Positions 34,629 through 35,456 of a DNA stretch of 64,000 nt are shown here, in pieces; position 1 is the stretch's first letter, and the number at the start of each line of letters is the position of its first letter. The notes beneath the pieces are model-generated. The model made no database searches, was not told the origin of the DNA, and saw only the letters and a list, made by a program, of their open reading frames with translations. The stretch lies in sequence record MH051916. One strand, 5' to 3'. The position numbers and the translations under genes are program-made. Source of the stretch: Enterobacteria phage vB_EcoM_IME340.

Positions 34629-34701
34629 TGGGAATTAGCCAAGTTGGTAAGGCACTGGATTTTGATTCCAGGATGCAAAGGTTCGAGTCCTTTATTCCCA
34701 G
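34629..34701 (+). tRNA. tRNA-Gln (anticodon UUG)
   Basis: Cloverleaf folded by hand: acceptor tgggaat/attccca, anticodon loop ttTTGat, T-arm aaagg-ttcgagt-ccttt. Confidence 0.85.
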
Positions 34702-34702
34702 C

Positions 34703-34789
34703 GCGAGAATGGTCAAATTGGTAAAGGCACAGCACTTAAAATGCTGCGGAATGATTTCCTTGTGGGTTCGAGTCCCACTTCTCGCACCA
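34703..34789 (+). tRNA. tRNA-Leu (anticodon UAA), class II, encoded CCA
   Basis: Acceptor gcgagaa/ttctcgc, anticodon loop ctTAAaa, long variable arm, T-loop gttcgag, ends ACCA. Confidence 0.85.
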
Positions 34790-34794
34790 AATTT

Positions 34795-34868
34795 GCGGAT
34801 ATCGTATAATGGCATTACCTCAGACTTCCAATCTGATGATGTGAGTTCGATTCTCATTATCCGCTCCA
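34795..34868 (+). tRNA. tRNA-Gly (anticodon UCC)
   Basis: Acceptor gcggata/tatccgc, anticodon loop ctTCCaa, T-loop ttcgatt, encoded CCA. Confidence 0.85.
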
Positions 34869-34878
34869 ATTTAATTTA

Positions 34879-34952
34879 CTCCGTGTAGCTCAGTTTGGTA
34901 GAGCGTCTGCTTTGGGAGCAGAATGTCGCAGGTTCAAATCCTGCCGCGGAGA
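34879..34952 (+). tRNA. tRNA-Pro (anticodon UGG)
   Basis: Acceptor ctccgtg/cgcggag, D-arm gctc-agtttggtag-agc, anticodon loop ttTGGga, T-arm gcagg-ttcaaat-cctgc. Confidence 0.85.
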
Positions 34953-34954
34953 CT

Positions 34955-35044
34955 GGAGGCGTGGCAGAGTGGTTTAATGCACCGGTCTTGAAAACCGGCA
35001 GTCGCTCCGGCGACTCATAGGTTCAAATCCTATCGCCTCCGCCA
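34955..35044 (+). tRNA. tRNA-Ser (anticodon UGA), class II
   Basis: Acceptor ggaggcg/cgcctcc, anticodon loop ctTGAaa, long variable arm, T-loop ttcaaat, encoded CCA. Confidence 0.85.
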
Positions 35045-35049
35045 GTTTT

Positions 35050-35125
35050 GCTGATTTAGCTCAGTAGGTAGAGCACCTCACTTGTAATGAGGACGTCGGC
35101 GGTTCGATTCCGTCAATCAGCACCA
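35050..35125 (+). tRNA. tRNA-Thr (anticodon UGU)
   Basis: Acceptor gctgatt/aatcagc, anticodon loop ctTGTaa, T-loop ttcgatt, encoded CCA. Confidence 0.85.
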
Positions 35126-35126
35126 A

Positions 35127-35201
35127 GGCCCTGTAGCTGGAAGGTTCAAGCAAGCGACTCATAATCGCCAGATGGTGGTTCAATTCCACCCAGGGCCACC
35201 A
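35127..35201 (+). tRNA. tRNA-Ile (anticodon CAU, presumably lysidine-modified to read AUA)
   Basis: Acceptor ggccctg/cagggcc, anticodon loop ctCATaa, T-arm ggtgg-ttcaatt-ccacc, encoded CCA; T4 tRNA-Ile is known to carry a CAU-derived anticodon. Confidence 0.75.
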
Positions 35202-35210
35202 AATTAATTT

Positions 35211-35297
35211 GGGGAGTTATCCCGTAGAGGTAGCGGTGTGGACTGTAAATTCATTGTCATTGCGACTCGGGTGGTTCGACTCCATCACTCCCCACCA
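35211..35297 (+). tRNA. Class II tRNA-like gene, probable tRNA-Tyr (anticodon GUA)
   Basis: Acceptor ggggagt/actcccc, anticodon arm gtgga-ctGTAaa-ttcat (two G-U pairs), long variable arm, T-arm ggtgg-ttcgact-ccatc, encoded CCA; D-stem has a mismatch. Confidence 0.55.
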
Positions 35298-35301
35298 ATT
35301 T

Positions 35302-35376
35302 GGATGTGTAGCTCAATGGCAGAGCGATCGCCTGTTAAGCGATTGGTTATAGGTTCGAATCCTATCACGTCCGCCA
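35302..35376 (+). tRNA. tRNA-Asn (anticodon GUU)
   Basis: Acceptor ggatgtg/cacgtcc, D-arm gctc-aatggca-gagc, anticodon arm atcgc-ctGTTaa-gcgat, T-arm atagg-ttcgaat-cctat, encoded CCA. Confidence 0.8.
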
Positions 35377-35380
35377 AATC

Positions 35381-35456
35381 CGAGGCATAGCTCAGAAGGA
35401 AGAGCAAGGACCTTCTAAGTCCTAGGTCGTAGGTTCGATCCCTACTGCCTCGACCA
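35381..35456 (+). tRNA. tRNA-Arg (anticodon UCU)
   Basis: Acceptor cgaggca/tgcctcg, D-arm gctc-agaagga-agagc, anticodon loop ctTCTaa, T-arm gtagg-ttcgatc-cctac, encoded CCA. Confidence 0.8.

Follow-up and report, generated by a model that had tools for sequence, protein, structure and literature searches.

The tRNA array of Enterobacteria phage vB_EcoM_IME340, a probable T2-type operon without segB

A run of ten transfer RNA (tRNA) genes occupies positions 34629 to 35456 of a 64,000-nucleotide stretch of the genome of Enterobacteria phage vB_EcoM_IME340 (record MH051916), the whole of which is referred to below as the window. The array is most likely, at a probability of about 0.85, the tRNA operon of Tequatrovirus (T4-like coliphages) in the T2-type form that lacks the homing endonuclease gene segB, with phage tRNAs that top up or replace those of the host. 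The array, its genes for tRNA-Tyr and tRNA-Asn, and the role of the tRNA-Tyr are already known, from T2L (2008), from T6 (2026) and from hundreds of annotated genomes. The residual interest lies in a D-arm shift, conserved in phage tRNA-Tyr, by which automatic annotation is misled, and in a candidate escape from AriB, the tRNA-cleaving nuclease of PARIS, by the tRNA-Asn variant.

Gene content and relationship to the T2 and T4 clusters

ARAGORN, applied to the whole window, called ten tRNA genes, all on the plus strand, and agrees at every coordinate with the genes, anticodons and order that a preliminary description of this DNA had given. In a gathering-threshold scan of the window with the Rfam tRNA model RF00005, nine of the ten scored 59-74 bits (E 1e-11 to 1e-15, far beyond chance), the exception being tRNA-Tyr. 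Along the plus strand the genes are tRNA-Gln (UUG; 34629-34702; 67.4 bits), whose CCA is not encoded and which abuts the class II tRNA-Leu (UAA; 34703-34789; 59.3 bits); tRNA-Gly (UCC; 34795-34868; 63.3 bits); tRNA-Pro (UGG; 34879-34953; 70.2 bits), also without an encoded CCA; the class II tRNA-Ser (UGA; 34955-35044; 62.6 bits), with CCA encoded; tRNA-Thr (UGU; 35050-35125; 73.5 bits); the T2 allele of a CAU tRNA that is probably of the tRNA-Ile2 (lysidine) type (35127-35201; 59.9 bits); the class II tRNA-Tyr (GUA; 35211-35297), which has an encoded CCA and falls under the RF00005 gathering score; tRNA-Asn (GUU; 35302-35376), with G73, an encoded CCA and the top score in the window (74.1 bits); and the T2 allele of tRNA-Arg (UCU; 35381-35456; 68.1 bits). 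The genes are tightly packed, as had been described, although the intergenic spacers run from 0 to 10 nt rather than the 0-9 nt first claimed, the widest being the 10 nt between tRNA-Gly and tRNA-Pro.

In T4 (NC_000866) the order is trna.2, Gln, Leu, Gly, Pro, Ser, Thr, Ile, segB, Arg, rnaD, rnaC, where segB is a 666-bp GIY-YIG homing endonuclease gene between tRNA-Ile and tRNA-Arg. The T4 reference annotation carries the eight tRNAs that the preliminary description credited to that phage. The window cluster is like that of T4 in lying between trna.2 and rnaD/rnaC and in sharing eight anticodons with it, but it has tRNA-Tyr and tRNA-Asn where T4 has segB, and T4 has no open reading frame (ORF) between tRNA-Arg and rnaD. 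Positions 34232-35146 are 95.2% identical to T4; homology then stops at 35146, within the CAU gene, and restarts at 35823. By sequence comparison, the intervening segment, 35147-35822, is an alternative cassette made up of the rest of the CAU gene, tRNA-Tyr, tRNA-Asn, tRNA-Arg and an ORF of 116 amino acids. T4 SegB gave no blastn match and no tblastn match at E <= 10 anywhere in the window. The individual genes follow the same division, in that tRNA-Leu (87/87, and also 87/87 against T6), tRNA-Gly (73/74), tRNA-Ser (87/87 over the body) and tRNA-Thr (75/76) are T4's genes, while the CAU tRNA (47/75 against T4 tRNA-Ile) and tRNA-Arg (49/76) are different sequences; tRNA-Gln (65/74) and tRNA-Pro (62/75) differ from T4 mostly in the anticodon arm. 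The preliminary description had taken tRNA-Tyr and tRNA-Asn for plain additions to the T4 set, placed where T4 has spacer and stable RNAs. This does not hold, as it is segB that T4 has at that position, with rnaD and rnaC downstream of tRNA-Arg; nor are the two RNAs displaced, both being kept in the window at 35823-36079; and the whole of 35147-35822 is swapped, including the CAU and Arg alleles.

The corresponding order in T2 (AP018813.1) is Gln, Leu, Gly, Pro, Ser, a 402-nt coding sequence (CDS), CAU, Tyr, Asn, Arg and a 351-nt ORF. Window positions 35127-36160 are 97.4% identical to T2 over 1037 nt, with an equal gene order (CAU-Tyr-Asn-Arg-ORF-rnaD-rnaC). T2 shares the segB-less cassette, and its tRNA-Tyr (87/87) and tRNA-Asn (75/75) are identical to those of the window; it differs in having the 402-nt CDS between tRNA-Ser and the CAU gene, where the window has tRNA-Thr, and hence nine tRNAs against ten. 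The arrangement with tRNA-Tyr and tRNA-Asn, presented earlier as a novelty relative to T4, was published for T2/T2L in 2008 (Brok-Volchanskaya et al., 2008; PMC2330249) and is commoner than that of T4. A megablast search of 34500-35600 against the phage collection matched 873 records, 364 of them at a query coverage of at least 80%, the top match being Escherichia phage 132 (Tequatrovirus; 99.8%), in which ten tRNAs are annotated as in the window. The Tyr and Asn pair is found in 433 phage records at a coverage of at least 80%, and T4-type segB in 126, which makes the T4 arrangement a minority. In 333 records there is an extension of 192 bp, bearing tRNA-His, between tRNA-Asn and tRNA-Arg, two genes that are separated by 4 nt in the window. 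This insert, absent from the window, consists, in Yersinia phage fPS-65 for example, of a 114-nt stretch followed by tRNA-His; the 114-nt stretch of fPS-65 (L002:2378-2491) has no annotation, ARAGORN call or Rfam match.

The relationship between the two arrangements can be considered in the light of what is known of SegB. The sequenced cluster of T2L lacks segB and carries genes for the Met(CAU), Tyr, Asn and Arg tRNAs together with small ORFs (PMC2330249). In each tRNA gene SegB cleaves close to the 3' end, at GGTTCRANTCC, and its major 27-bp site is within tRNA-Asn; upon co-infection of T4 with T2L, ~1250 bp of the T2L region is almost fully replaced (PMC2330249). The core of the sequence recognized by SegB, GGTTCGAATCC, occurs at 35352 in the window tRNA-Asn gene, so that a preferred SegB cutting site is predicted inside this gene, the cleavage itself being that reported by Brok-Volchanskaya et al. 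(2008). In T4 the CAU-Tyr-Asn-Arg-ORF116 cassette has probably been overwritten by the segB homing endonuclease cassette, and the position of the SegB site within tRNA-Asn would explain why the two arrangements behave as competing alleles. Co-infection with a T4-type phage should likewise overwrite the window cassette, because its tRNA-Asn gene holds the preferred SegB site. The locus is a mosaic in other phages also, T6 combining a T4-type CAU gene with tRNA-Tyr and segB, and T2 being without tRNA-Thr. The T6 record (AP018814.1; locus L004:643-717, minus strand) further contains an annotated tRNA-Thr in which the 5' end is that of tRNA-Pro (UCCGUGUAGCUCAG…) and the body and 3' end are those of tRNA-Thr, giving a mismatched acceptor stem and no ARAGORN call; this hybrid looks like the remnant of a deletion that took out tRNA-Pro and tRNA-Ser.

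The tRNA-Tyr gene

The gene at 35211-35297 has G1-C72, A73, an encoded CCA, the 7-nt anticodon loop CUGUAAA with U33 and A37, and a variable region of 15 nt that includes a 3-bp stem. G1-C72 and A73, which we take to be identity elements for TyrRS, are invariant in 10/10 homologues of the gene. It had been described as merely Tyr-like; the GUA anticodon and the long variable arm on which the label was based are present, but the label undersells the gene, a long arm being the normal design of bacterial tRNA-Tyr (host tyrU is 85 nt long, and matches the phage gene at 59 of ~90 aligned columns). The tRNA-Tyr of T6, which has been studied experimentally, is identical at 86/87 positions, the single change converting G50-C64 to G50.U64 and leaving the variable arm identical.

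Several properties of the gene might nevertheless be read as marks of decay. It is missing from the gathering-threshold Rfam scan, its top Rfam match being tRNA-Sec at 29.9 bits (cut-off 47), and in the cloverleaf drawn by ARAGORN the D-stem is weak (U.G, C-G, C12xC23, C-G) and A14 is absent. A canonical core, comprising a 2-nt connector (U8,N9), a D-stem at 10-12/23-25 and a score over threshold, is not found in this gene. The minimum-free-energy fold is not a cloverleaf either, although with z = -0.65 it is uninformative. Related genes have been labelled 'tRNA-OTHER' (in HP3.2) and 'tRNA-Pseudo-GTA' (a homologue in Mt1B1_P17).

The D-arm is non-canonical in a definite way, a 4-nt connector, UAUC, being followed by a 3-bp CCG/CGG stem. 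Homologues from T6, T2, Vequintavirus, an E. coli plasmid (phage-plasmid-like), Felixounavirus, Tequintavirus, Jiaodavirus, a Klebsiella phage and Phapecoctavirus have a common design, in which the acceptor stem is of 7 bp and the connector of 4 nt (5 nt in one), the D-stem is a 3-bp CYG/CRG helix, the D-loop shows the usual landmarks A, GG and A, the anticodon stem of 5 bp bears the loop CUGUAAA, the variable arm has a stem of 3 bp with a loop of 5 nt, and a T-arm, A73 and CCA follow. The segmentation of these sequences by hand and regular expression required CYG/CRG, which makes its own D-stem count partly circular, and the counts of the covariation tool are preferred. These were obtained on a cleaned alignment of eight sequences from eight divergent lineages, with 500 shuffles and slid partners as controls. 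With the D-stem shifted, 184/184 cells are paired and 13/23 pairs show compensatory double changes; 0/500 shuffles reach the pairing or the double-change value, and the slid controls are 43-58% paired. The D-stem register chosen by ARAGORN pairs in 65.6% of cells, with one pair never formed, compared with 100% for the register shifted by 2 nt. The tRNA-Tyr family is under strong structural selection, and its odd D-arm, which is common to all phage tRNA-Tyr examined, including the Tequintavirus (T5-like) gene, is a conserved trait. It is because of this conserved, unusual arm that the genes receive low covariance-model scores and the 'tRNA-OTHER' and 'tRNA-Pseudo-GTA' labels. By analogy with its characterized relatives, the fitting annotation for this gene is functional tRNA-Tyr, not 'tRNA-OTHER' or a pseudogene; covariance-model callers penalize the shifted D-arm.

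Two further readings of the gene were discarded. A selenocysteine tRNA is out, given the anticodon GUA, a tRNA-Sec score (29.9 bits) far below the cut-off of 47, and a family that is annotated and behaves as tRNA-Tyr. Recent capture from the host chromosome was rejected on the finding of 0 chromosomal blastn matches in 5426 E. coli genomes, in which all the matches, 273 copies with 88-93% identity, are borne on plasmids. These E. coli plasmids, of ~70-120 kb, carry an Asn-Tyr-Thr-Ser array (NZ_CP024264.1, locus L009:2921-3471, and 272 other records), which in NZ_CP024264.1 adjoins DNA ligase and integrase genes; judged from this one record, the tRNA-bearing plasmids look like phage-plasmids. 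The tRNA-Tyr of Vequintavirus is ~94% identical to that of the window, and the distribution of these sequences suggests that the gene has spread horizontally among unrelated coliphages.

tRNA-Tyr and tRNA-cleaving defences

The earlier suggestion that the additional specificities reflect host defence is supported, for tRNA-Tyr, by published experiments (PMC13096335; PMC11555353). It had been framed in terms of anticodon nucleases, which is correct insofar as the defences concerned cleave tRNA, but PtuAB cuts in the variable arm and AriB in the anticodon stem at 40|41, and they are not strict anticodon nucleases. In the tRNA-Tyr of E. coli and in that of T6 alike, PtuAB of the Septu system cuts within the variable arm, at C48 (Chihara et al., 2026; PMC13096335). 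Northern blots detect the T6 tRNA-Tyr, and T6 is rescued from Septu when this tRNA is overexpressed or amplified, a unit of 718 bp comprising tRNA-Tyr and segB being tandemly repeated in escape mutants in a SegB-dependent manner; deletion of the T6 tRNA region sensitizes the phage to Septu (PMC13096335). T4, which has segB and no tRNA-Tyr gene, cannot escape Septu, and T2 is resistant (PMC13096335). The PtuAB of retron-Eco7 is neutralized by tRNA-Tyr of the T5 family, provided that the anticodon and stems are intact and that the promoter is strong (Azam et al., 2024; PMC11555353). Strongly expressed E. coli tRNA-Tyr also rescues, indicating that quantity matters and that the mechanism is a supply of working tRNA (PMC11555353).

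The sequence around C48 of the window tRNA-Tyr, GUC|A, equals that of the host, so that there is no difference at the cleavage site, unlike the case of tRNA-Asn (see below). By analogy with T6, the additional phage tRNA-Tyr would restore translation after PtuAB cleavage by dosage, not by resistance. The T6 locus is alike in its tRNA-Tyr, which directly follows the CAU tRNA and has an identical variable arm and C48 site, but there tRNA-Tyr is followed by segB, where the window has tRNA-Asn and tRNA-Arg, and T6 has no tRNA-Pro, tRNA-Ser or tRNA-Asn at the locus. In the T5 family, the Tequintavirus tRNA-Tyr is homologous to that of the window and shares its odd D-arm, the variable arm differing by one base; T5 tRNA variants and the window tRNA-Asn also both depart from the host sequence beside the site of AriB cleavage. 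T5 is unlike the window in having ~24 tRNAs, among them tRNA-Lys, which AriB chiefly targets and which is absent from the window. On hosts with Septu or retron-Eco7 PtuAB, the window phage should behave like T2 and T6 and not like T4, though without the segB amplification route.

tRNA-Asn and AriB

In the ARAGORN structure, tRNA-Asn forms a canonical cloverleaf with the anticodon GUU, a 7-bp acceptor stem and G73-CCA. K-12 asnT served as the host reference, another E. coli tRNA-Asn being set aside as non-canonical and probably prophage-borne. The phage and host genes agree at 47/76 positions, and at positions 36-41 the phage has UAAGCG and asnT UAAUCC, that is, G39 and G41 in place of U39 and C41. 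AriB cuts host tRNA-Asn at 40|41, in the anticodon stem, and in tRNA-Lys the U39A change abolishes AriB cleavage and A41C inhibits it (PMC12409363). T5 variants of tRNA-Lys, tRNA-Thr and tRNA-Asn jointly neutralize PARIS (PMC12409363). It is therefore plausible that the tRNA-Asn of the window is insensitive to AriB, and it could serve as a nuclease-insensitive spare while meeting the phage's higher demand for Asn. At the same positions, 36-41, the window tRNA-Thr has UAAUGA and host thrU UAAUCA.

In several unrelated phage arrays and in a phage-plasmid, tRNA-Asn lies within ~200 nt of tRNA-Tyr. This proximity hints at co-transfer, chance being also possible in phages with large tRNA sets. GUU tRNAs of another kind occur in Jiaodavirus (L008:478-562), Karamvirus (L013:776-860) and Phapecoctavirus (L012:401-486); they are 85-86 nt long, with G73 and a long variable arm, and thus combine an Asn anticodon with a body of class II, the host-like UAAUCC being kept at 36-41. 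The combination of a long arm and G73 presumably resembles serine identity.

Codon demand and alternative explanations

A number of observations weigh against the view that the array is an operon whose tRNAs top up or replace those of the host. The tRNA-Tyr gene fails in the Rfam scan, the tRNA region is dispensable according to a published report (PMC2330249), and T4 does well with neither a tRNA-Tyr nor a tRNA-Asn gene. T6 tRNA-Tyr is itself cut at C48, and a single copy gave T6 only intermediate protection (PMC13096335); because the variable arm of the window gene is identical to that of T6, any protection would depend on dose, and amplification could not be driven by segB, which the window lacks. 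The mutational data on AriB come from tRNA-Lys, not tRNA-Asn. PARIS mainly targets the Lys and Thr tRNAs and, as no tRNA-Lys is encoded in the window, could not be defeated by an AriB-insensitive tRNA-Asn alone.

The alternative that fares best, though still unlikely, is that tRNA-Tyr and tRNA-Asn are kept only for the decoding demand of an AT-rich proteome and have no role in defence. Codon usage was compared between 80 ORFs of the window (18,736 codons) and 24 K-12 genes, a small host sample that includes atypical genes, which itself tells against leaning on the comparison. The window phage has 36% G+C. Its eight T4-type tRNAs read the A-ending codons CAA, UUA, GGA, CCA, UCA, ACA, AUA and AGA, all of which are enriched relative to the K-12 sample (AGA 11.3 vs 3.9 per thousand and AUA 13.2 vs 7.5, for example), which favours such supply matching, as does the enrichment of Tyr (4.39% vs 2.77%, 1.58x) and Asn (5.92% vs 4.63%, 1.28x) and of the codons UAU (33.6 vs 19.8 per thousand) and AAU (43.4 vs 27.6). 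Rescue by E. coli tRNA-Tyr itself, if strongly expressed, points the same way (PMC11555353). However, although Lys is the most enriched residue (1.72x), the phage has no tRNA for it, whereas a tRNA-His is added at this very locus by many relatives despite the depletion of His (0.68x). T4, moreover, has an equal codon bias without the Tyr and Asn genes, and published genetics links the T6 orthologue of tRNA-Tyr to escape from Septu (PMC13096335). Supply matching is a partial explanation, and one that is compatible with a role in defence.

A more far-reaching proposal, which must be regarded as doubtful, is that the T2-type tRNA-Asn, and the entire Tyr-Asn(-His) block with it, is a mobile counter-defence module, in which the tRNA-Asn variant would be insensitive to AriB-type cleavage by virtue of G39/G41 and the shifted D-arm of the tRNA-Tyr family would be adaptive. 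If this were true, the module would be exchanged among unrelated coliphages and phage-plasmids, buffering them against tRNA-cleaving immune nucleases. Tyr, Asn and His tRNAs all have G34 (queuosine-family) anticodons, and G34 tRNAs of the queuosine family are the substrate set of colicin E5-type nucleases. A defence with the specificity of colicin E5 could be the selective agent acting on the Tyr-Asn-His combination.

It is improbable that the Tyr/Asn cassette is passenger DNA, persisting mainly as the endonuclease-free allele at a frequency that reflects SegB dynamics and not any benefit from the tRNAs. Such persistence would be in keeping with the preferred SegB site in tRNA-Asn, with the almost complete exclusion of the cassette in T4 x T2L crosses and the non-essential nature of the region (PMC2330249), with the T4 homology breakpoints, which fall exactly around the cassette, and with the mosaic state of the locus in T6 and T2. 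Against it stand the strong structural selection on the tRNA sequences; the tRNA-Tyr gene found at 88-94% identity in unrelated phages and phage-plasmids, often near tRNA-Asn, which suggests repeated acquisition; and the greater frequency of the cassette than of the segB allele (433 vs 126 records) despite its being the homing target. Least credible of all is that 35211-35297 is a decayed, non-functional pseudogene, a reading that the low Rfam score, the C12xC23 mismatch and missing A14 of the ARAGORN fold, the labels elsewhere and the non-cloverleaf fold might invite, but which is rejected on the covariation across eight lineages, on the conserved G1-C72, A73, CUGUAAA loop, T-loop and CCA end, and on relatives, namely the 86/87-identical T6 orthologue, active and detected on a northern blot (PMC13096335), a Tequintavirus tRNA-Tyr with the same D-arm, and the tRNA-Tyr of phages T5 and SP15, which rescue infection only with intact anticodon and stems (PMC11555353).

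Other features of the locus

The gene at 35127-35201 is labelled Met by ARAGORN, which cannot separate Met from lysidine-Ile. Matches to it occur in 5423/5426 E. coli genomes, and the top match in every sampled record is annotated tRNA-Ile; compared with one host tRNA-Ile(CAU), it agrees at 62/76 positions and has an identical anticodon arm, AGCGACUCAUAAUCGCC. The acceptor stem, GGCCC.../...GGGCC, includes C4-G69 and C5-G68, which we assume to be determinants for TilS. These likenesses, which bring the body of the tRNA closer to host ileX/ileY than to tRNA-Met, favour the preliminary description's choice of Ile(CAU) over Met as the better label for a gene of the tRNA-Ile2 type, with lysidine modification predicted. 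Both names are used for the CAU gene in the 2008 paper on T2L (PMC2330249).

The anticodon arms of tRNA-Gln and tRNA-Pro have been largely replaced relative to T4, the acceptor and D arms, and in tRNA-Gln also the T arm, being shared. In tRNA-Gln the stem-loop-stem is CUGGA-UUUUGAU-UCCAG in the window and UAGCA-CUUUGAC-UGCUA in T4. Local replacement of this kind is the pattern expected under pressure from nucleases that attack the anticodon arm. A smaller difference is found in tRNA-Ser, the 3' end of which is …CCUCCG-UAA in T4 and …CCUCCG-CCA in the window (CCA at 35042-35044). The T4 tRNA-Ser presumably depends on 3' trimming and CCA addition, steps that the window tRNA-Ser should not need, given its encoded CCA.

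The conserved left border of the cluster is an ORF of 95 amino acids on the plus strand (34244-34531; phrog_2023, E 1.4e-47, of unknown function), which at 288 nt matches T4 trna.2 in length and position and is its counterpart. Downstream of tRNA-Arg, the 116-amino-acid ORF of the T2-type cassette (35473-35823, plus strand) belongs to phrog_3355 (E 7e-54, also of unknown function) and gave no match in a Pfam search; an equivalent CDS of 351 nt comes after tRNA-Arg in T2, fPS-65 and phage 132. It is followed on the plus strand by homologues of the T4 stable RNAs rnaD (species 2; 35823-35933; blastn 77.8% over 117 nt) and rnaC (species 1; 35941-36079; blastn 97.8% over 139 nt), of which rnaD is far more diverged from T4 than rnaC. 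The Rfam scans of the window returned no family match for either RNA.

By analogy with T4, the head-to-tail genes would presumably be transcribed as a single precursor, from which the tRNAs are excised by host RNase P and 3' processing enzymes. A promoter scan gave no more matches than were found in shuffled sequences, and no promoter was placed. At the other end, a strong hairpin of 10 bp, 7 of them G-C, at 36130-36153 is followed by a T run reaching 36163 on the plus strand, and resembles an intrinsic terminator by consensus match only. The record of fPS-65 annotates a terminator at the place equivalent to 36130-36163, and this element probably ends the tRNA/stable-RNA transcription unit.

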